Positions 656 through 21,515 of a stretch of 64,000 bases of DNA are shown piece by piece. Within the stretch, counting starts at the first letter, position 1. Every line of letters starts with the position of its first letter. Both the position numbers and the translations under genes were made by a program. Location: NCBI RefSeq assembly GCF_054482525.1, contig NZ_JBTHVG010000004.1; one strand, given 5' to 3'. Source of the stretch: a plasmid. The notes under the pieces were generated by a model. That model ran no database searches. It saw only the letters and a program-made list of their open reading frames with translations, and was not told the DNA's origin.

Positions 656-706
656 TGAACAACCACACCGCCCCGCCGGAGACGGGGCGGCAGAGGGAGA
701 AATACG

Positions 707-1144
707 ATGATGAATACCGAACTGACACTGAATGCCCTGCAGTCCATGAATGCCCAGGAATATGAAGAAATCCGTGCTGCGGGAAGCGATATGCGCCGTA
801 ATCTCACTCACGAGGTGATGCGTGAAGTGGACGCACCAGCTAACTGGATGATGAACGGAGAGTATGGCAGCGAGTTCGGGGGCTTTTTCCCCGTCCAGGT
901 TCGTTTCACGCCAGCCCACGAACGTTTCCACCTGGCATTATGTTCGCCGGGAGACGTCTCTCAGCTCTGGATGCTGGTTCTGGTGAATGGTGGTGGACAG
1001 CCTTTCGCCGTCGTTCAGGTGCAACATATCTTCACGCCTGTCGCGATCAGTCACACGCTGGCGCTTGCCGCGACACTGGATGCGCAGGGATACAGTGTTA
1101 ACGACATCATCCATATCCTGATGGCAGAAGGAGGTCAGGCATGA
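707..1144 (+). CDS. psiB: Plasmid SOS-inhibition protein PsiB
   Basis: 145-codon ORF whose sequence ([20 protein letters not shown]...) I recognise as PsiB. It lies immediately upstream of, and overlaps, psiA. Confidence 0.9.
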
Positions 1145-1860
1145 GCGCACGTTCACGGGCACTGATCCCCCTCAGCGCAGAACAACAGGCCGCCATGCAG
1201 GCGGTGGCTGTCACAGAACAACGTCGTCGTCAGGGACGCACACTTTCAGCATGGCCTTATGCCACCGCTTTCTTTCGCTGCCTGAATGGCAGTCGCCGGA
1301 TTTCGCTGACCGATCTCCGCTTTTTTGCCCCTGCGCTGACGAAGGAGGAATTTCATGGCAACCGTCTCCTGTGGCTGGCTGCCGTGGATAAACTGATTGA
1401 AAGTTTTGGGGAAGTCTGTGTTCTTCCCCTGCCATCCGATGCGGGGCACCGTCTGTTCCCGTCCGTGCCTTTTCGTGAAGGTGAGCGTCGTCGTCAGAAA
1501 ACCACGCTGACAGAGCAGAAATACAGCCGCCAGCGGGAACGTGAGGCAGAACGACGGGAACTGGAATACCAGACATGTTTTGCTCAGGCGCAGATTGACC
1601 TTGCGTTTCATACTCCCGCCACGGTCGGAAGCTGGTTGTCCCGCTGGTCTGGTGTTGTTGAGGAGCATGATCTGGAAACGATTTTCTGGGGGTGGTGCGG
1701 GCGTTTTCCGTCACTGTCATCATTTGACCGGTTTTTCTGGCAGGAGGAACCACTCTGGCGGCTGATTTTTGAAGCCGGTGAGGCCGGTCGTGGTGCACCG
1801 ATACAGGTACGTGCACTTGAGCAGTGGATGATCCCGAACAAGCTGGAGAACGTAATATGA
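1141..1860 (+). CDS. psiA: PsiA
   Basis: 239 aa. Its ATG overlaps the psiB stop (ATGA at 1141-1144). The sequence is recognised as PsiA of F/IncI leading regions. Confidence 0.9.
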
Positions 1861-2453
1861 TGAAATCAGACGAAAAATACCAGGTTCCCGCGTGGATGCG
1901 ACCTCTGTTGCCGTTGCTCTGCAACACCGGGGGGAACGATCCGGAAGAACTGCTGAATGATACAGAAACCACTGCCAGTGCGAATGTTGTCCGTTATGTA
2001 CTGATAGTTGCTGTGCGGTCGCAGGTTGATCTGCTGCAGCTTCTGTACAGGAAAGGGCTGTTGCGCACAGAGATACCAGGTGGCTTTTCACCGGAAGAAG
2101 CGCAGGCACTCCTGGATAATCTGGTGCGCAGCCATATCAGCAAGGCGCTGTCGGGCGAGCGAATGGCAGCCCGTGACAGAAATGCCGATCTGGCCTGGAT
2201 TAGACAGCAACTGGTCGATGCCGCCTGGTTTGTCCGTGCCACACTGGAAGCGCATGGGATGAGCGTCGGAAATGAGAGTCCCCCTGCTCCGCCGGAGACA
2301 ATGCCGGACATACAGACACGGGAACTGGTGATGTTGATCAAGCGACTGGCATCATCGCTGAAAGCGGTGAAACCGGACAGTTGTGTGGTGCGTGAAGCGC
2401 AGGACTGGCTGCGCGACAGAAAACTTGTGGATATCACAGATATTCTCCGGTGA
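1857..2453 (+). CDS. Leading-region hypothetical protein (198 aa)
   Basis: The ATG at 1857 overlaps the psiA stop, which suggests translational coupling. No domain is recognisable. I prefer this start over the track start at 1824. Confidence 0.6.
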   Translation: MMKSDEKYQVPAWMRPLLPLLCNTGGNDPEELLNDTETTASANVVRYVLIVAVRSQVDLLQLLYRKGLLRTEIPGGFSPEEAQALLDNLVRSHISKALSGERMAARDRNADLAWIRQQLVDAAWFVRATLEAHGMSVGNESPPAPPETMPDIQTRELVMLIKRLASSLKAVKPDSCVVREAQDWLRDRKLVDITDILR

Positions 2454-2640
2454 ACCAGGCATGTATATTTTACGCAGGGACATGCCGGTCATGATCGTTT
2501 CGTTCCAGGGGTGGTCTGGAGATCATGCGGTGTGCTCCCTGCTCTCGCCGGAATAAGGACGTCGCCGCCGGCTCCGCTTTTACCCGGCCATGCGGGGCAT
2601 GGCCTTGTGGGTTTTCAGTTATGTGGCCTCAGCGTCGTGT

Positions 2641-2880
2641 GCGGGCTGTGCCGTGCCTCCATCGTAGCCGGGCTTCTGCGGGCGGGTTGCAAGGTAAGGT
2701 GAACCGCTGCGGTCACCCGGTCCCTCCTTCCCGTCCGCCGTGATTTTCCGGTCGTTCACCCGCTCAGATTTCGCGGTCTCACCCTCCAACTCCCGCCAGC
2801 CGTGTGCGTCAGGCTGCGGCTTCCCTTGCGCCCTTGCAACCCTGCAGGCCCGGCAAAGATGGAGGCACGGCACCGCCCGG
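2641..2880 (+). promoter_or_regulatory. Long imperfect hairpin upstream of ardA (candidate single-strand promoter/ssi-type element)
   Basis: Bases 2641-2694 form an imperfect inverted repeat with 2832-2880. The core ccgtgcctccatc (2651-2663) pairs perfectly with gatggaggcacgg (2858-2870). The structure ends 35 nt before the ardA ATG. Confidence 0.55.
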
Positions 2881-2914
2881 TGTCGCAGAACATGTGACTA
2901 TGGAGGATTCGGGA

Positions 2915-3415
2915 ATGTCTGTTGTTGCACCTGCTGTATACGTTGGAACCTGGCACAAATACAACTGTGGAAGCATCGCCGGACGCTGGTTTGACCTGAC
3001 CACGTTTGATGATGAGCGCGACTTTTTCGCCGCCTGCCGTGCTCTTCACCAGGATGAAGCCGATCCTGAACTGATGTTTCAGGATTATGAGGGATTCCCG
3101 GGGAATATGGCCTCTGAATGCCATATCAACTGGGCCTGGGTTGAAGGCTTCCGCCAGGCACGGGATGAAGGCTGCGAAGAGGCTTATCGTCTCTGGGTGG
3201 AGGATACCGGTGAGACGGATTTTGACACCTTCCGCGATGCCTGGTGGGGCGAGGCTGACAGTGAGGAGGCTTTTGCGGTTGAGTTCGCCAGTGATACCGG
3301 CCTGCTGGCTGACGTGCCGGAGACGGTGGCGCTCTATTTTGACTATGAGGCGTATGCGCGGGATTTATTCCTGGACTCCTTCACCTTTATTGACGGTCAT
3401 GTGTTCCGTCGGTGA
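2915..3415 (+). CDS. ardA: Antirestriction protein ArdA (166 aa)
   Basis: Sequence MSVVAPAVYVGTWHKYNCGSIAGRWFDL... is recognised as ColIb-P9-type ArdA. It is acidic and 166 aa from the ATG at 2915. The track start at 2804 is an upstream extension. Confidence 0.9.
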   Translation: MSVVAPAVYVGTWHKYNCGSIAGRWFDLTTFDDERDFFAACRALHQDEADPELMFQDYEGFPGNMASECHINWAWVEGFRQARDEGCEEAYRLWVEDTGETDFDTFRDAWWGEADSEEAFAVEFASDTGLLADVPETVALYFDYEAYARDLFLDSFTFIDGHVFRR

Positions 3416-3768
3416 TTTACTCCCCCGCTCCGGCGGGGGTATGGCCTGCCAGGCCGCCGGAAAACCCTGGCAGGCTTACGCCTGCCTGAAATGCAGGAGG
3501 GCCGCGCCTGCGGCGCTGCCCTTCCTGCCCGTCATGGTGTGAGGCATTTTTCTGTTATGTCGTTTCTGTTGTTCTGATTTCCGGAGGCGGGGACACCTTC
3601 GGCTCCCGGCTGCCTGGCGGCATCCGGTCGTCAGGCCCGACTCCGACAGGCAGCTGCTGGCGCACCCGCCAGTCTCCGCCGAACCCGCTGGCGCGGTTTC
3701 GGGCTGCCGCTACGGTCCGATGTCTGAAAAACCAGGCTTGCAGCGACCGTTCCGGTCGCGCCGCCCCT

Positions 3769-8857: not shown

Positions 8858-11560
8858 GTGAATGCAGTCATTCCGAAAAAGAGAAGGGACGGCAAGTCTT
8901 CGTTCGAAGACCTGGTATCCTACGTCTCTGTCCGGGATGACATGACCGATGAGGAACTGGATTTATCTTCTTCTTCGCAGGCTGAACAACCGCACCGAAG
9001 CCGTTTCAGTCGCCTTGTTGATTATGCGACACGTCTTCGAAATGAGTCATTCGTGGCGCTGGTTGATGTCATGAAGGACGGCTGCGAATGGGTCAACTTT
9101 TATGGTGTCACCTGCTTTCATAACTGTACTTCTCTTGAAACTGCCGCTGCAGATATGGAGTACATTGCCCGGCAGGCACACTATGCAAAAGATGACACTG
9201 ATCCTGTTTTTCACTACATCCTTTCCTGGCAGTCACATGAAAGCCCGCGTCCGGAACAGATTTATGACAGTGTACGTCATACGCTGAAATCACTCGGCCT
9301 TGCCGACCATCAGTATGTCTCTGCCGTGCATACTGATACAGATAATCTGCACGTCCATGTGGCTGTTAACCGGGTACACCCTGAAACGGGTTATCTGAAC
9401 CGGTTATCATGGAGTCAGGAAAAACTCAGTCGTGCCTGCCGTGAGCTTGAACTGAAGCATGGTTTTGCTCCGGATAACGGTTGCTGGGTCCATGCGCCGG
9501 GAAATCGTATCGTTCGCAAAACTGCCGTTGAACGTGATCGCCAGAACGCTTGGACACGCGGAAAAAAACAAACTTTTCGCGAGTATGTTGCGCAGACAGC
9601 GGTCGCTGGTTTACGCAGTGAACCTGTACATGACTGGTTATCCCTGCATCGTCGTCTTGCTGAAGATGGTTTGTACCTGTCTCAGATGGACGGAAAATTT
9701 CTGGTGATGGATGGCTGGGATCGCAACAGGGAAGGTGTACAGCTTGACTCGTTTGGTCCCTCCTGGTGTGCAGAAAAACTCATGAAAAAAATGGGTGACT
9801 ACACGCCAGTGCCAAAAGACATTTTCAGCCAGGTGGAAGCACCAGGACGCTATAATCCGGACTTCATTGCAGCTGATGTTCGCCCGGAAAAAATCGCTGA
9901 AACAGAAAGTCTGCAGCAGTATGCCTGTCGTCATCTTGGAGAACGTCTGCCGGAAATGGCACGGGAAGGACGGCTGGAAAACTGCCAGGCTATTCACCGC
10001 ACACTGGCTGAAGCGGGATTATGGATGCGTGTTCAGCATGGTCACCTGGTTATCTGTGACGGTTATGATCATAACCAGACTCCCGTTCGTGCTGACAGCG
10101 TATGGTCACTGCTGACGCTCGACAATGTGAATCAACTCGATGGTGGCTGGCAGCCTGTACCAACAGATATTTTCCGCCAGGTTACGCCAACAGAACGCTT
10201 CCGTGGTCGTCGTATGGAGAGCTGTCCTGCGACCGATAAAGAATGGCACCGTATGCGTACAGGTACGGGGCCGCAGGGGGCTATCAAACGCGAACTGTTT
10301 TCTGACAAAGAAAGTCTGTGGGGATACAGCATCAGCCATTGTAGCCCTCAGATTGAAGAAATGATCACACAGGGTGAGTTTACCTGGCAGCGTTGTCATG
10401 AGTTGTTTGCACAACAGGGACTGATGCTACAGAAACAACATCACGGGCTTGTTGTCGTTGATGCCTTTAATCATGAGCAAACGCCGGTGAAGGCCAGCAG
10501 CATTCATCCTGATCTGACTCTGGGGCGTGCAGAGCCACAGGCCGGACCTTTTGTGAGTGCCCCAGCAGATTTGTTTGACAGGGTGCAACCTGAAAGTCGC
10601 TATAACCCGGAGCTGGCTGTCAGTGACAGGTACGGGGTCAGCAGTAAACGTGACCCAATGCTGCGCCGGCAGCGACGTGAAGCCAGAGCTGAGGCCCGTG
10701 CTGACCTGCGTGCCCGCTATCTGGCATGGCGTGAACAATGGCGTAAACCAGATCTGCGTTATGGGGAACGTTGTCGGGAAATTCATCAGGCATGCCGTCT
10801 GCGGAAGTCACACATTCGTGCGCAGTACGATGATCCGGCATTACGTAAGCTGCATTATCACATTGCAGAAGTTCAGCGAATGCAGGCATTGATCAGGCTG
10901 AAAGAAGACATCAGGGATGAGCGGCAGAAACTTATTGCTGACGGGAAGTGGTATCCACCCTCTTACCGTCAGTGGGTCGAAATTCAGGCTGCTCAGGGAG
11001 ACAGGGCTGCTGTATCGCAGCTGAGAGGCTGGGATTATCGCGATCGCCGTAAAGATAAGTCACGCACAACGACAACAGACCGCTGTGTCGTGCTTTGTGA
11101 ACCGGGCGGAACGCCGGTATACGGTAATACCGGTGATCTCGAGGCCCGTTTGCAGAAGAACGGGAGTGTTCGTTTCCGTGACCGTCGGACGGGAGAGTTT
11201 GTCTGTACGGATTATGGTGACAGGGTTGTTTTCCGTAATCACCATGACCGCAATGCGCTGGCAGATAAACTGGATTTGATTGCACCGGTATTATTCGGGC
11301 GTGATCCACGCATGGGTTTTGAACCAGAAGGAAACGACAAACAATTTAACCAGGTCTTTGCTGAAATGGTTGCCTGGCATAATGTGACAGGCCGTACCGG
11401 TCACGAAGACTACAGGATTACGCGACCGGACGTGGATCATCACCGTGAAGGAAGTGAACGCTACTACCGCGATTATATCGCGGCGAACAGCAACGATGAC
11501 GCATCACTGCCTCCGCCGGAGCAGGATAAACTCTGGGAACCGCCTTCTCCGATGAGATGA
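8858..11560 (+). CDS. nikB: Relaxase NikB
   Basis: About 900 aa. It has the histidine-triad relaxase motif HTDTDNLHVHVAVN. Its position after nikA and its length match R64 NikB. Confidence 0.9.
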   Translation: MNAVIPKKRRDGKSSFEDLVSYVSVRDDMTDEELDLSSSSQAEQPHRSRFSRLVDYATRLRNESFVALVDVMKDGCEWVNFYGVTCFHNCTSLETAAADMEYIARQAHYAKDDTDPVFHYILSWQSHESPRPEQIYDSVRHTLKSLGLADHQYVSAVHTDTDNLHVHVAVNRVHPETGYLNRLSWSQEKLSRACRELELKHGFAPDNGCWVHAPGNRIVRKTAVERDRQNAWTRGKKQTFREYVAQTAVAGLRSEPVHDWLSLHRRLAEDGLYLSQMDGKFLVMDGWDRNREGVQLDSFGPSWCAEKLMKKMGDYTPVPKDIFSQVEAPGRYNPDFIAADVRPEKIAETESLQQYACRHLGERLPEMAREGRLENCQAIHRTLAEAGLWMRVQHGHLVICDGYDHNQTPVRADSVWSLLTLDNVNQLDGGWQPVPTDIFRQVTPTERFRGRRMESCPATDKEWHRMRTGTGPQGAIKRELFSDKESLWGYSISHCSPQIEEMITQGEFTWQRCHELFAQQGLMLQKQHHGLVVVDAFNHEQTPVKASSIHPDLTLGRAEPQAGPFVSAPADLFDRVQPESRYNPELAVSDRYGVSSKRDPMLRRQRREARAEARADLRARYLAWREQWRKPDLRYGERCREIHQACRLRKSHIRAQYDDPALRKLHYHIAEVQRMQALIRLKEDIRDERQKLIADGKWYPPSYRQWVEIQAAQGDRAAVSQLRGWDYRDRRKDKSRTTTTDRCVVLCEPGGTPVYGNTGDLEARLQKNGSVRFRDRRTGEFVCTDYGDRVVFRNHHDRNALADKLDLIAPVLFGRDPRMGFEPEGNDKQFNQVFAEMVAWHNVTGRTGHEDYRITRPDVDHHREGSERYYRDYIAANSNDDASLPPPEQDKLWEPPSPMR

Positions 11561-11682
11561 CAGATGAAGCTTTATTAGTTTCGTTATAGAATGAAAAAAT
11601 CACCAATATTAAATATGGGTGTGGTGGTAAAAATAAATATGTTAGGCAATGTTAAGTAACTCTATTGACGGAATCATGTTTT

Positions 11683-12501
11683 ATGAGCACTAATCTTGCT
11701 TTTCGTTATGCAAGTGTTGAAACTTTTTTTAAAATGATTGAAAACCAAGAATTATGGTTTACCGATCTTCGGAATATGAATGATCCGGAAGAATACTCGG
11801 CTGGCTATGAAATAGTCAAGAGAATAATAAATGAGGAATTTCCAGATTGCATTAGACTATTAGAAGAAGTATCACCTAATAAGATAGACGAAAATTTTAA
11901 GATATTAATTTGTTGTTTCTGTTCTGATGGAGATCGTTCCAACATGTGGAGCGAGTATGGTGATAATGGCAAAGGCGTTGCTATTGGTTATGATAAGAAT
12001 ATTATAACCCAAAATCATATTTTGGCTCGGTTTGAAGAACATTTTCAACCTATTAGTGGTAGAGTTGTCTTTCATCCTGTTATCTATTCAGAAGAACTGT
12101 TTCGAGAATATGTAAGAAACGCATTGCATGATTATATTAATCGCTCAAGTTTAAATATTAAATATGCACGTGGCATACTTCATGCACATCTTATCAGACT
12201 ATGTTCATTATATAAGAGAGAGAGTTTTGAATGTGAAAATGAGGTCCGAGGACTTATTGAAGTAGATGAACGTACATTCCCACCATACAAACTTGAAAAA
12301 CGTAGTACTGATTACGGAATTGCGTATTATACTAAGGTGAAATTTACCTGTAACAATATTACGGCAATTAGAGAGATTGTGTTGGGGCCTTTATTTGAAC
12401 AATCTGATGAACAGCTTCGGTCAAAATTAGATGATCTAGGGTTAAAGAATATAAAAATTAGACGTTCCATATGTACCTACAATGATGTGGTTAATCTGTA
12501 A
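11683..12501 (+). CDS. DUF2971-family protein (272 aa), AT-rich cargo gene
   Basis: N-terminal hallmark FRYASVETFFKMIENQELWFTDLRNMNDPEE. It is visibly AT-rich relative to nikB and trbC, and is followed by its own terminator. Confidence 0.7.
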   Translation: MSTNLAFRYASVETFFKMIENQELWFTDLRNMNDPEEYSAGYEIVKRIINEEFPDCIRLLEEVSPNKIDENFKILICCFCSDGDRSNMWSEYGDNGKGVAIGYDKNIITQNHILARFEEHFQPISGRVVFHPVIYSEELFREYVRNALHDYINRSSLNIKYARGILHAHLIRLCSLYKRESFECENEVRGLIEVDERTFPPYKLEKRSTDYGIAYYTKVKFTCNNITAIREIVLGPLFEQSDEQLRSKLDDLGLKNIKIRRSICTYNDVVNL

Positions 12502-12505
12502 TCTG

Positions 12506-12533
12506 AATGCTGGTATCTAGTACCAGCATTTTT
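12506..12533 (+). terminator. Rho-independent terminator
   Basis: aatgctggta...taccagcatt stem followed by ttttt. Confidence 0.75.
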
Positions 12534-12573
12534 AAATAGGTTTTTTGCGGGAAGACCAAAGTATGGTCACAGT

Positions 12574-15946: not shown

Positions 15947-17155
15947 TCAGAATTCGTTGTCTGTAGCAGGTGTGCGGGGCAGGATGTCGTCGGTGAGGGA
16001 CCAGTTGGTCAGGATGCGGCGTTTCCGGTCGCGATCTGGTTGTGGTTCATCCCAGATAAGACCGAGACTGAGCATATCCCGCCGTAAGCCTTCCACCGCT
16101 TCATCAACACAGGGTTCAGGGCAGGGAAGACCAAAACGCATGGCTTCGGCCTCTGCACGTGCAACGGCCACCACGCCAGCGCCTTCAATAAATCCTTTCG
16201 TGGTATTGGCGCGGTGTAATGCATAAAACAGCGTTCTGTCCACGCCTTTCAGCCAAATCCAGTTGGGTGGCGTAAGCCGCAGGTCATGTGCATACAGCCA
16301 GACCAGCCCACTGCGGACGTAGCGATGTTGTTTCAGCCATTGCTGTGCTCCGTTGCTTTTAATCACTCTCTGGAAAGCTGATTTGGCCAGTGAATAAACA
16401 GGGGTACAGAATTTCCCGCTGTCCCGTTTGCTTTTAATTCTGCATGAGAGGTTCAGTGTATCCATGAGCTTTAATGCTGCCTTCCGATCATCCAGGAAAT
16501 ACTGAAGGCCAAATATGGCAAAGAGCGCTTTTTCATGTGGTGCCATGTCTTTCCAGGACGTTAAAGGTTTACCCAACTGGGCCATGAAACATCGTCTTGC
16601 AGCTGCAACATCGAGCTGCATATTGGTGATGAGAGTATGCTGTTCGACAAATGCTTCCGGGGTGAGAGCAACCCGCCGTTCAGGTCGTTTACCACCATGA
16701 AAGAGTTTTTTCGGATCACCATCTGCCAGTACAGGGGCGATAGCAGGGGATAACGAAGCAAAGATGTGTGGCAGTCGGGTAATATCTACTGGTCTGCGGG
16801 TGAAACGGCTTTGTCCCGGATGTTGATACCATTCCCACAAACACCAGAGTGTCACAGGTAAGAGGTACATCCACAGAATACCTATGGTCTGTTCCATGAC
16901 GTTAACCCACTGGCTATAGCTTATGTTGGCGGCGTTGTTACCGGTCATGGCAAGCAGGTTGTATCGTGGTGCTGCATAGTTATGAAATGGTCCCCAGTCG
17001 ACCAGTCCCCATAAGGTATGAAGAATCAGGCAGCTGGTGTAAACCACTTCCGGCAAGAATAACCATATGACGAATAGCAGCAGGATAAGAAGGACACCAA
17101 CAGCGCCCCATATCTGCATAGGATCTTCTGCGACAGGCTGTCGATTGTAAGACAT
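15947..17155 (-). CDS. trbA: TrbA (DotM/IcmP-like inner-membrane protein)
   Basis: 402 aa with N-terminal transmembrane helices. It is the first gene of the trbABC operon, as in R64. Confidence 0.85.
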   Translation of the reverse strand: MSYNRQPVAEDPMQIWGAVGVLLILLLFVIWLFLPEVVYTSCLILHTLWGLVDWGPFHNYAAPRYNLLAMTGNNAANISYSQWVNVMEQTIGILWMYLLPVTLWCLWEWYQHPGQSRFTRRPVDITRLPHIFASLSPAIAPVLADGDPKKLFHGGKRPERRVALTPEAFVEQHTLITNMQLDVAAARRCFMAQLGKPLTSWKDMAPHEKALFAIFGLQYFLDDRKAALKLMDTLNLSCRIKSKRDSGKFCTPVYSLAKSAFQRVIKSNGAQQWLKQHRYVRSGLVWLYAHDLRLTPPNWIWLKGVDRTLFYALHRANTTKGFIEGAGVVAVARAEAEAMRFGLPCPEPCVDEAVEGLRRDMLSLGLIWDEPQPDRDRKRRILTNWSLTDDILPRTPATDNEF

Positions 17156-17248
17156 GACAAAGTCTCCATTTCTGGAATTTAAATCAAACGGAAAGGTTAA
17201 AAATTTATTTGCAGGCGATAAGAGCTAACCAGAGGAATTAGCCGTGTG

Positions 17249-17419
17249 ATAAAAGGATTGTTGCAGATACGAAAGTCGTTAGAATAGCCGCGGACGCTTG
17301 AGGCTGTATGCCGAAAGCGTTTTGTGGATGGTATACAGCAGAAAGCCCCCTGGAGATTTTTTATCAATCAACCAGGGGCTCTACTGTAATGCCTAGACAA
17401 CATTATAGTAGCCTGATAA
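17249..17419 (+). repeat. Duplicated, truncated copy of the pnd promoter/leader
   Basis: 171 bp matching 18670-18840, with 8 substitutions and two 1-nt indels by hand alignment. It includes TTGTTG-16 bp-TAGAAT (17258-17285) and the first 10 pndC-like codons, then diverges. Confidence 0.85.
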
Positions 17420-17461
17420 TTTAGATATGTGTACATCCTACCGGAAAAGATACTTTTCAGG

Positions 17462-18553
17462 TCATTTATCAATGGGTGTTATTACCACCGGTAGTTTGTT
17501 TACGTCTTCTAAATTAACTGGTACCGGAGGTAACCATATTAATCTAGGTTTACGCTCATGGGCTAGTTCTGGTTTCTTACTTCCTGTCCAGTATGTATGC
17601 CAGTGTCCCCGGCGTATATGAGGACGTTTGCTACCTATTGTTGTCCGCTCTTTCCCTGTGGGTTCTGCTTGGCGATATTGCCGTATGGCTTGCCCCATTC
17701 GAATACCAACGTCCCACTCCCGAATGTTTTGTGCTGGTAGTTCATGGTGAGTGTGAACATGCTTTTTGTGCTTTTCTGACCGTTTAAATTGATTTTTTTC
17801 TTTTATATCATTGATCTGTGAACAGATATAAAGCACCATTGATATCTGTGCGTTAAGAAGATTAAACTCCCTGTCTCTGAAATCTTTGAGCTTTTCGTTA
17901 ACTGTTACGACGACTTCACCATCGATACACTCCATCTTTCTGGAGTCAAGAAGTCCTTCACGAGAGTCCTTTATTCTGATGATATTATTGACGACGTCAA
18001 CATCCTTTTCTTTTAGCCCTGTAGTTCCTTGACTTTGTTTCAGATCATCAATAATGAAAAGCCGGATAATATTTCCATTATTGTCCAAAAATGGATAAAA
18101 GAAAAATCCATGTATCGGATAGGACGTAGGAAGTATAGTATGCAGATTTTCGGCTGAAACATAGATACTCCATGAAGGGAGTTCCTTGAGGATCTGTGCA
18201 GGAATGTTATCAACATAGGTGTTAGCCACATCACTGATGATGTCCTCGCTTAGGCGATAAATTTTCTTTGTATAGCGCCAGTATATAAAACACAAAATAC
18301 TGTGTGGTGACGATAATTCGTTTCCATGAAATAAAGATTCTAGTTTAGAAGCCAGTTCTTCATTTTTTTGTTGGCTCTGGAGACGACTCATTAGTATGCG
18401 TTCTTCATCTTTTCTGTCGATAAATAATAATGGATTGTCGCTGCGTTTTTTATTTCGGCATGCAAAGATTTGCTCTTCAAGCCCAGGGATTGTGTTGATG
18501 ACTTTTTTTATCTTTTTCAGGAAAATAGGTTGTTTTAACTGCGACATTTCCAT
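17462..18553 (-). CDS. Orphan AT-rich protein (363 aa), unknown function
   Basis: Long ORF in a visibly AT-rich insert between the two pnd-leader copies. The C-terminus is basic and His-rich, with the motif RPHIRRGHWHTYWTG. No family recognised. Confidence 0.7.
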   Translation of the reverse strand: MEMSQLKQPIFLKKIKKVINTIPGLEEQIFACRNKKRSDNPLLFIDRKDEERILMSRLQSQQKNEELASKLESLFHGNELSSPHSILCFIYWRYTKKIYRLSEDIISDVANTYVDNIPAQILKELPSWSIYVSAENLHTILPTSYPIHGFFFYPFLDNNGNIIRLFIIDDLKQSQGTTGLKEKDVDVVNNIIRIKDSREGLLDSRKMECIDGEVVVTVNEKLKDFRDREFNLLNAQISMVLYICSQINDIKEKNQFKRSEKHKKHVHTHHELPAQNIREWDVGIRMGQAIRQYRQAEPTGKERTTIGSKRPHIRRGHWHTYWTGSKKPELAHERKPRLIWLPPVPVNLEDVNKLPVVITPIDK

Positions 18554-18669
18554 CTCCTAAGGGGATTCTTTTATTAACTAAAATCAGCATAACATGCGTT
18601 GTTGTGAAGTAGAGAACCATGTATTGGGTTGGTTGTTAACTTCAAAAACAACGCTGAATCATTCAAATA

Positions 18670-18840
18670 ATAAAAGGATTGTTACAGATACGAAAGTCGT
18701 TAGAATAGCTGCGGGCGCTTGAGGCTGTATGCCGAAAGCGTTTTGTGGACGGTATACAGCAGAAAGCCCCTGGAGATTTTTTTATCAATCAACCAAGGGC
18801 TCTACTGTAATGCCTCAACAACATTATAGTAGCCCGATAA
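18670..18840 (+). repeat. pnd promoter/leader (intact copy)
   Basis: The partner of 17249-17419. It continues into pndC and pndA. Confidence 0.85.
18760..18820 (-). ncRNA. pndB: PndB (Sok-like) antisense RNA, approximate limits
   Basis: Minus-strand TTGCCT-17 bp-TACTAT (-10 at 18826-18831), antisense to the pndC start. A terminator-like stem (agcccttgg/ccaggggct) lies downstream. The limits are inferred by analogy with hok/sok. Confidence 0.5.
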
Positions 18841-19013
18841 CCGCCGGAAGGCAATGGAGGGGCTATGATGCCACAGCGAACGTTTTTAATGATGTTAATC
18901 GTCGTCTGTGTGACGATTCTGTGTTTTGTCTGGATGGTGAGGGATTCGCTTTGCGGACTCCGGCTCCAGCAGGGAAACACAGTGCTTGTGGCAACGTTAG
19001 CCTACGAAGTTAA
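18810..19013 (+). CDS. pndC: PndC (Mok-like overlapping reading frame)
   Basis: The ATG at 18810 opens a frame that overlaps pndA, as in hok/mok-type loci. Confidence 0.6.
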   Translation: MPQQHYSSPITAGRQWRGYDATANVFNDVNRRLCDDSVFCLDGEGFALRTPAPAGKHSACGNVSLRS

Positions 19014-19020
19014 ACGTTAA
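18868..19020 (+). CDS. pndA: PndA, Hok-family type I toxin (50 aa)
   Basis: MPQRTFLMMLIVVCVTILCFVWMVRDSLCGLRLQQGNTVLVATLAYEVKR is recognised as PndA/Hok family. It is too short to appear in the ORF track. Confidence 0.9.
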   Translation: MPQRTFLMMLIVVCVTILCFVWMVRDSLCGLRLQQGNTVLVATLAYEVKR

Positions 19021-19030
19021 CGGGCAACAC

Positions 19031-19051
19031 GGCGGCAGGTTTTCTGCCGCC
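19031..19051 (+). terminator. pnd terminator hairpin
   Basis: ggcggcag-gtttt-ctgccgcc stem-loop 11 nt after the pndA stop. Confidence 0.6.
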
Positions 19052-19091
19052 GCTTTGTTGCGAAGGCTGACCTCATTGCGCCCTTTCTTCT

Positions 19092-19343
19092 TCAATGAAG
19101 CGTATCTGGTATTGTTTCATTTTCCCTGAAGCCGATTAGCTCCAGCCGAATGCCTTTGCCATCGGGGGCCACGTTCTGCATTTCGCAGATACCACGTCGG
19201 GTCATGAGTGTGAAGGCTGTCATTGCCAGCATGGCTAACGCGTTTTCCTCGCTTCCGCTGCGTTTCTCGAGAGCATCGGCAATTTCTTCTATGCTCCCCA
19301 CCTGAAAGCAAGAGTCGAATTCTTTACTCCACTTTTCTGACAT
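19092..19343 (-). CDS. Hypothetical protein (83 aa)
   Basis: ORF with moderate coding appearance. No recognised domain. Confidence 0.5.
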   Translation of the reverse strand: MSEKWSKEFDSCFQVGSIEEIADALEKRSGSEENALAMLAMTAFTLMTRRGICEMQNVAPDGKGIRLELIGFRENETIPDTLH

Positions 19344-19496
19344 CGGATTTTCTCTCTGTATTTATGGGTAGTTATCGAACTGAATGTGCCAGTTTTTTCA
19401 GGAGACGGCAAAGTTGAGATGATTGGTTCTGATTCAAAGCATGAGTTTCCCCGGTGTGACGGGCATGTCGGGCGGATTTTGAGAAACAACAGATGT

Positions 19497-19527
19497 AAAA
19501 AAACCGACTGGTGAGGTCGGTTTTTTT
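19497..19527. terminator. Bidirectional rho-independent terminator
   Basis: aaaaaaa-ccgac-tggtgag-gtcgg-ttttttt. It has a U-tract when read on either strand. Confidence 0.85.
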
Positions 19528-19583
19528 ACTGTTCCGTTACAGAGTGGGTGGCTCTGGTCGGAAAAGAACTGTCTATAACTGAC
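19497..19583 (-). ncRNA. Predicted AgrB/IstR-like antitoxin sRNA (~85 nt)
   Basis: A minus-strand promoter (TTGCAG 19618-19613, 17-bp spacer, TACTAT 19595-19590) places the transcription start near 19583. The first 32 nt are complementary to 19740-19771 (31 Watson-Crick pairs plus 1 G-U). It ends at the terminator at 19497-19527. Confidence 0.6.
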
Positions 19584-19843: not shown

Positions 19844-19939
19844 ATGATTAATCTGTTAATCATCGTTCTCAGGGCAGTAGTTGCCGTTGCAAACGCGCTG
19901 ATTGCTGTTCTGGAACTGATCCGGGAACTTATCGACTGA
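19844..19939 (+). CDS. Predicted DinQ/TisB-like type I toxin peptide (31 aa)
   Basis: MINLLIIVLRAVVAVANALIAVLELIRELID. GGAG lies 6 nt upstream and can pair with ctcc at 19824-19827. The peptide is a single amphipathic helix with polar residues at 7-residue spacing, and it resembles the DinQ and TisB sequences as I recall them. Confidence 0.6.
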   Translation: MINLLIIVLRAVVAVANALIAVLELIRELID

Positions 19940-20852: not shown

Positions 20853-21515
20853 TTAAAATACTTCGGCTACAGGTATGCCTGCAATCTGCTCCCACTCCTT
20901 ACGCTTTTCCTGAATCAGGCGAGGAAAGTCGACAGGGTAATCATATCCTCGACTTGCCATCGCGTGCATGGTGTTTGATGCGGTTTCTGGATGAGTACAC
21001 CATGATGGAATAGGAACCATTGGCAGGTTGATGTATTTCGTATGAATTTCCAGTGTTTTGTCGTCTGTTACAGTACGAGTGAAATTATGAATGTCAAAAC
21101 CGATAACATCCATAATGTTGCCTGGATAAATACGGACATACAACATTGTGCCATTTTTAAGGTCAATACCGAAATAAGCTCCCTGAGTTAAAGATAATCC
21201 TTCATACCCCTTCTCTGGAGAGTAGAAGCCTGACTCTTTTATTGTTTGTACAACTTTTCTTATTTTTTCTCTCCTTGTTTTTGCACGTGAGTACATCCAT
21301 ATGCCTGGCGCAAGTAATAAGAACCAACTACCAAAAGTGACAACATAATCTTCGACCTTATTTCCGAAATAACGATCAGAACATAGCATTTCGGTAAAGC
21401 CTAATGCGCAGAACAGAAAAAAAGGTATTCCAAGAAAGAAATAAGCTTTTCTTAATACATAATAAAATAGCCACCAGGTTGGAAATCTGTCTGTTGTTTC
21501 TTTTTTAGCTTTCAT
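20853..21515 (-). CDS. excA: Entry-exclusion protein ExcA
   Basis: 220 aa membrane protein, the last gene after traY. Length and position match R64 excA. Confidence 0.8.

Follow-up and report, generated by a model that had tools for sequence, protein, structure and literature searches.

In a 64,000-nucleotide stretch of plasmid DNA (contig NZ_JBTHVG010000004.1 of NCBI RefSeq assembly GCF_054482525.1; this whole stretch is hereafter "the window"), the listing of open reading frames (ORFs) contains a 363-codon ORF on the minus strand at 17462..18553. A sequence-only reading of the window had noted this frame correctly and had called it an orphan gene of unknown function. Our analysis leaves very little doubt that it is neither: this is the finQ gene for fertility inhibition, present on a subset of IncI1-type conjugative plasmids, and its product is a member of the AcrVA2 family of proteins.

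The assignment to finQ draws on both protein identity and genomic position. A database protein that is 100% identical over 363 residues is named "protein finQ" and has 829 member sequences, and the Swiss-Prot reference, FINQ_ECOLX (342 residues), matches 99% of the query at 83% identity. The gene is annotated as finQ in hundreds of IncI1 plasmids, and the best matches in PLSDB label the ORF "finQ: protein FinQ" and place it between trbA and a Hok/Gef gene. The window carries an IncI1 backbone (nikAB, trbCBA, excA, traY-traE and the pil genes), and the ORF lies in the trbA-pndC interval of this IncI1-type plasmid, within an insertion that duplicates the pnd leader. FinQ of R820a/R62/R621a, the protein represented by FINQ_ECOLX, is the product of the same gene, on the same IncI1 backbone and in the same position between trbA and pndC/pndA. 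In three papers (PMC8744291, PMC2887853, PMC8004404), finQ appears as a known IncI1 gene; it was sequenced in 1989.

The alignment to FINQ_ECOLX is near-identical save for short divergent blocks, and two of these blocks, LYFME and DTGIHT, are exact +1-frame translations of the window's DNA. One such frameshift patch spans the invariant GHWH motif. Judging from the sequences, these patches are probably sequencing errors in the 1989 reference; a variant allele is the less likely explanation. The gene, its site, the duplication and the protein family have all been published already. Our own additions are three minor ones: a likely start codon, a probable truncation of the gene model in RefSeq, and the patches of shifted frame in the FINQ_ECOLX entry.

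Placement of FinQ in the AcrVA2 family

The sequence-only reading could not place the protein in any family and proposed HMMER searches, structure prediction and Foldseek as checks. These were run, and they placed it in the AcrVA2 family. Scans against Pfam-A and NCBIfam gave no hit, but the copy of Pfam-A that was scanned lacked the PF26125 model; P0014, another protein of the family, likewise drew a blank, so this null result reflects a gap in the library and says nothing in favour of orphan status. Precomputed Pfam annotation assigned PF26125 (AcrVA2-like) to 27 of 27 homologues. In PHROGs, the protein matched phrog_6160 (E=1e-47), a group of unknown function. A phmmer search of the PDB sequences returned AcrVA2 (7ci1/7ci2) with an E-value of 3.9e-17 for 7ci1_A, the similarity falling in two stretches (residues 85-160 and 232-347).

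The fold told the same story. With an alignment of 20 sequences as input, AlphaFold2 gave a model with a predicted local distance difference test score (pLDDT) of 75.8 and a predicted template modelling score (pTM) of 0.79. When this model was compared with the PDB by Foldseek, only AcrVA2 was retrieved (E 4.2e-12 to 2e-10, probability 1.00, template modelling score 0.47-0.55). The protein thus has both sequence similarity to the AcrVA2 family and the fold of the crystal structure.

Conservation was examined in 20 diverse members of the family. Invariant among them, in the numbering of a 361-residue protein (see below), are W90, P124, Y240, G281, P309, H310, R312, R313, H315, G322, W338 and P341; W92, H312, R314, R315 and H317 are the invariant residues of note when all 363 codons are counted, and the residues compared with AcrVA2 are given in that numbering. 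FinQ W92, H312, R314 and H317 align with W79, H286, R288 and H291 of AcrVA2, four residues at which mutation abolishes the downregulation of mRNA. Of the residues that AcrVA2 requires (W79, D89, H286, R288, H291), these four are conserved in FinQ; the position of D89 is considered further below. FinQ is a full-length AcrVA2-like protein with the same fold, the conserved tryptophan and the H-x-R-R-x-H motif.

How far does the resemblance to AcrVA2 go? The Moraxella bovoculi protein (7CI1/7CI2) shares with FinQ the tryptophan (W79/W92) and the PH-I-RR-x-H-W-H motif (H286/R288/H291 corresponding to H312/R314/H317). Like FinQ, it is carried by mobile elements and lowers the mRNA of a competitor's genes. 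The structure-based identity, however, is only ~14-19%, the N-terminal regions diverge, and the target of AcrVA2 is Cas12a, whereas that of FinQ is the expression of F tra. In the hosts of FinQ (E. coli, Salmonella), there is no indication of a Cas12a target, and most AcrVA2-family members reside in genomes without Cas12a (Marino et al., bioRxiv 10.1101/2022.11.29.518452). Anti-CRISPR activity of FinQ does not follow from its belonging to this family.

The family turns out to be very large: among 1.84 billion cluster representatives searched with a profile, 6105 members reach E<=1e-3, of which 2486 reach E<=1e-30, and tblastn detected relatives in 47 phage records, including those of Erwinia jumbo phages and of Moraxella, Leptospira, Pasteurella and Lactobacillus phages. 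Close relatives of FinQ are not confined to IncI plasmids, because a 77%-identical FinQ is encoded on a Kosakonia sp. chromosome (CP025697.1; L008 8001-9086), in an island next to mutS that also contains a phage-type integrase, a TIR-domain protein, an IS66 fragment and a CbtA toxin. A distant member (30% identity) lies on a 257-kb metagenomic scaffold (L007 8001-9023) beside a DUF3991/Toprim primase, a YodL protein and a 2256-residue MutS_I/SNF2-like helicase, a setting that looks like a large mobile element.

Other assignments fared poorly. No full-length match was found in PADLOC-DB, and the weak partial match to PDC-S02 (E=0.0086, residues 248-309) is insignificant. The remaining PHROG matches (E>=0.006, among them a nucleoside 2-deoxyribosyltransferase at E=0.18) were regarded as noise, and a NiFe hydrogenase subunit matched in the PDB (E=0.041) was rejected.

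The sequence-only reading had also pointed to a basic, His-rich C-terminus resembling a nucleic-acid-binding tail, and its account of the composition holds: residues 251-363 have an isoelectric point (pI) of 10.4 and contain 9 His and 24 Lys+Arg. The AlphaFold2 model shows a C-terminal domain that is folded (pLDDT ~83-85) and has the conserved PHIRRGHWH motif on its beta-strands; residues 251-263 (EKHKKHVHTHH, with its KHKKHVHTHH stretch) alone are predicted to be disordered (pLDDT <50). The placement of the motif in beta-strands, together with a fold that lacks similarity to HEPN domains, led us to reject a HEPN-like reading of R308-x6-H315.

A possible route to the silencing of F tra mRNA

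How might such a protein inhibit fertility? According to PMC8744291, which cites Ham & Skurray (1989), the FinQ proteins that R820a and other IncI1 plasmids encode interfere with F transfer through the transcripts of the tra operon; when FinQ is present with a co-resident F-like plasmid, the level of F tra mRNA is lowered and F conjugation is suppressed. For AcrVA2, Marino et al. (bioRxiv 10.1101/2022.11.29.518452) reported that the protein binds the N-terminal polypeptide of Cas12a and brings about a translation-dependent loss of Cas12a mRNA. The H286A, R288A and H291A variants still bind Cas12a and cause no downregulation; W79A interacts more weakly. Those authors named FinQ as a homologue of AcrVA2 in which the HxR motif is conserved and the N-terminus diverges; they suggested that it follows the same paradigm with other targets.

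By analogy, the N-terminal and middle parts of FinQ would recognize one or more nascent F Tra polypeptides, as AcrVA2 recognizes Cas12a. The conserved C-terminal H-x-R-R-x-H domain would then trigger the destruction of the polycistronic tra mRNA that is under translation. The outcome would be a polar loss of tra transcripts of the kind that was originally read as site-specific termination. Translation dependence, which has been shown for AcrVA2, would on this view extend to FinQ. This translation-coupled mechanism has already been proposed by Marino et al., and we regard the description of FinQ as a polypeptide-specific, translation-coupled silencer of tra mRNA as tentative, with the considerations for and against it close to balanced.

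Several observations weigh against it. D89 of AcrVA2 aligns in the pairwise alignment with Ser102 of FinQ, which is followed by E103 and D104. In their N-terminal ~80 residues, FinQ and its clade are without the W-P-x-W-C-F-L-P motif that most family members possess. The effect of FinQ was first interpreted, as PMC8744291 relates from Ham & Skurray (1989), as Rho-independent transcription termination at several specific tra sites. Finally, the case for the present allele is one of homology.

The original interpretation is the strongest competitor, although we consider it unlikely. FinQ would be a sequence-specific transcription termination factor that engages DNA or nascent RNA at defined fisQ sites in F tra, independently of Rho and of translation. 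The basic character of the protein (pI 9.3 overall, and that of its C-terminal part, noted above) is compatible with nucleic-acid binding. However, the homologous motif of AcrVA2 acts in a translation-dependent, codon-independent manner, and co-translational decay fits the reduced levels of distal mRNA equally well.

Less probable again, and in our estimation a long shot, is that FinQ serves mainly in anti-defence, silencing a host immune protein during the establishment of the IncI1 plasmid, with inhibition of F as a side effect or as one of several specificities. The founding member of the family is an anti-CRISPR protein; the family is very large (the 6105 representatives and phage hits described above) and is found mostly on mobile elements and in hosts without Cas12a; and the Kosakonia homologue sits in an integrase-bounded island beside TIR-domain and CbtA genes, with no F-plasmid context suggested. 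On the other hand, finQ is located at the distal end of the transfer region, away from the leading region, which is first into the recipient and contains ardA and psiB (~700-3500), and no host target is known. Plasmids that carry only the finQ insertion left the Salmonella phage type unchanged (PMC8004404), an assay that tests anti-phage activity and not anti-defence. Nothing supports an anti-phage role for FinQ.

The sequence-only reading had guessed at a defence, anti-defence or exclusion determinant. The general class that this implies, conflict between genetic elements, was well chosen, as both fertility inhibition and AcrVA2-family membership belong to it. The exclusion part was not: FinQ is not the entry-exclusion gene, since ExcA is encoded separately at 20853-21515.

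FinQ may be set beside FinOP, FinW, PifC, Osa and FipA, which are likewise plasmid-encoded inhibitors of conjugation by a co-resident plasmid (PMC8744291, PMC5696584). These proteins are unrelated to FinQ in sequence and fold; searches with FinQ hit AcrVA2 only. They also differ in what they act upon: coupling proteins are the targets of PifC and Osa, and FinOP works through antisense RNA, whereas FinQ affects the abundance of tra mRNA.

The interest of FinQ lies in its being an experimentally tractable E. coli member of a family of ~6100 clusters at 50% identity. For the mechanism of this family, a protein-sequence-specific destruction of mRNA during translation, F tra expression offers an easy read-out. 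If translation-coupled silencing by FinQ proves true, the AcrVA2 paradigm would extend from anti-CRISPR activity to conflict between plasmids, and the "transcription termination" model of the 1980s would have to be reinterpreted.

Start codon and gene models of finQ

Two ATG codons lie at the beginning of the ORF. The first, at 18553, is directly abutted by a Shine-Dalgarno sequence, AGGAG (spacing 0 nt); the second, at 18547, is 6 nt downstream of the same element. The sequence MSQLKQP, which begins at the second Met, forms the N-terminus of six of six close homologues (64-87% identical). Because the spacing from AGGAG fits the second ATG and the close homologues start with MSQLKQP, the product probably has 361 residues, and the second ATG is most likely the start codon. 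A protein of this length has a computed mass of 42.3 kDa and the overall pI given above. A consensus scan of the minus strand (18548-18700) detected no sigma-70-like promoter directly upstream of finQ. The coordinates of the gene and of the features around it are collected in the table.

Features of the finQ insertion and its surroundings in the window
Feature	Position	Strand	Basis and remarks
finQ coding sequence	17462..18547	minus	361 residues from the second ATG; open frame reaches the first ATG at 18553 (363 residues); identical protein named finQ; AcrVA2 homology
Shine-Dalgarno sequence of finQ (AGGAG)	18554..18558	minus	Read from the sequence
finQ cassette (1250 bp of unique AT-rich DNA between the repeat copies)	17420..18669		blastn against an empty-site plasmid; GC 0.385
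pnd (hok/sok-type) leader and antisense-RNA region, copy A	17249..17419	plus	trbA side; direct repeat; Rfam sok match
pnd leader, copy B (functional-looking)	18670..18840	plus	Directly upstream of pndA; direct repeat; Rfam sok match
pndA (Hok/Gef-family toxin gene)	18868..19020	plus	Right border of the insertion site; same coordinates annotated Hok/Gef in NZ_CP028485.1
trbA	15947..17155	minus	Left neighbour of the insertion site; annotated IncI1-type conjugal transfer protein TrbA

The RefSeq annotation, WP_275450201.1, differs considerably: it covers 17462-18241 on the minus strand (259 residues) and begins with an ATC codon. The residues that it leaves out number ~100; they are conserved, confidently modelled and homologous to AcrVA2, and they include the family-invariant Trp92. 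Because of the ATC start and the omission of these N-terminal residues, the RefSeq model is probably truncated. Its correction, together with that of the frameshift patches that Swiss-Prot carries over a conserved motif, would be of value for annotation.

One might argue, from the extent of the RefSeq annotation and from the outcome of the promoter scan, that the ORF is a relic in decay or goes unexpressed, and that the true product is the 259-residue RefSeq protein or none at all, but this is very improbable: the RefSeq start is an ATC codon, the DNA upstream of it encodes conserved residues including the invariant tryptophan, the alignment with AcrVA2 begins at residue 85 and the structural model is confident over residues 10-170, a good Shine-Dalgarno sequence precedes the full ORF, and the identical 363-residue protein has its 829 member sequences.

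The cassette, its duplication and its insertion site

The sequence-only reading described the ORF as more AT-rich than the flanking backbone and as bounded by a duplication of the pnd leader, and both descriptions agree with our measurements. The GC content is 0.39 for the ORF and 0.385 for the cassette, compared with 0.50-0.51 for trbA, trbB and trbC and 0.491 for the whole window; AT-richness at the level of the cassette is reached by 1% of the 1250-bp segments of the stretch. The cassette is flanked by a direct repeat of 171 nt with 92% identity between its copies, and both copies match the Rfam sok family (RF01794) above the gathering threshold (copy A, 17292-17449, 84.6 bits; copy B, 18713-18870, 132.8 bits). 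Copy B has a promoter-like TTGTTA-16-TAGAAT at 18679-18706, and no toxin ORF follows copy A. In a plasmid with an empty site (L002, NZ_CP046284.1), blastn showed one copy of the repeat; what that plasmid lacks is exactly the extra copy and the 1250 bp at 17420-18669.

These features accord with published descriptions. After the 173-bp trbA-pndA intergenic sequence of R64, which is duplicated, PMC8004404 describes a "1250 bp sequence containing a 361 aa protein called FinQ", and in print the insertion, together with the duplication of ~171 bp, goes by the name of region "RD1". The trbA-pndC locus is used in the typing of IncI1 plasmids, and the presence of finQ within the 5' end of pndC accounts for its variation in length (PMC2887853).

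The arrangement is common. Megablast of 17100-19100 against PLSDB matched 1954 plasmids, of which 391 hold at least 80% of the query; in most of the records with a match, the plasmid is conjugative and comes from E. coli, Salmonella or Shigella. The full trbA-finQ-pnd arrangement is present in ~385-391 PLSDB plasmids against ~1600 with the nikB-trbC junction, or roughly a quarter. The window itself aligns to one such relative, NZ_CP028485.1, at 97.5-99.3% identity with indels.

By what route did the cassette arrive? It contains no second ORF of at least 120 residues and no transposase, and there are no terminal inverted repeats at 17420 and 18669. The duplication (171 nt at 92% identity) is far longer than a target-site duplication. 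For these three reasons, we rejected the notion that finQ is cargo of a transposon or insertion sequence, and the sequence features make it more likely that the cassette arose by recombination rather than by transposition.

Copy A is a second sok/pndB-type element (17249-17449, plus strand) and, to judge from its sequence, could supply extra antitoxin RNA. Its predicted pnd-type promoter would read antisense into the 3' end of finQ.

The trbA-pnd junction is a cargo hotspot with alternative occupants, because other IncI plasmids carry an unrelated protein there. In two of them (L003 1474-2460 and L005 1474-2427, both on the minus strand), the slot is filled by a protein of 317/328 residues with an N-terminal FitA-like ribbon-helix-helix domain. 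We considered whether the 328-residue L003/L005 protein could be a distant paralogue of FinQ and rejected this, given a BLASTP E-value of 8.5 and the FitA-like N-terminus. finQ has itself been a site of insertion. In pMS6198D (L004 2563-4812), finQ DNA matches only up to window position 18211, and where the 5' part would be there are instead sugE, blc (lipocalin) and blaCMY, in keeping with a report of Tn6092 inserted within finQ (PMC3358216).

Two further elements lie near finQ in the window. Between nikB and trbC, an insert (~11551-12564) with a GC content of ~0.34 holds a single AT-rich cargo gene, which encodes a DUF2971 protein of 278 residues (11665-12501, plus strand; Pfam E=6e-10). NZ_CP028485.1 lacks this insert, and only 55 of 1601 matching plasmids have it, which makes it much rarer than finQ. 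Just past pnd, segments at 19495-19582 (minus strand) and 19844-19939 (plus strand) comprise a 53.7-bit match to the AgrB family of antisense RNAs close to dqlB, a DinQ-like type I toxin gene; together, the two are predicted to form a second type I toxin-antitoxin pair.
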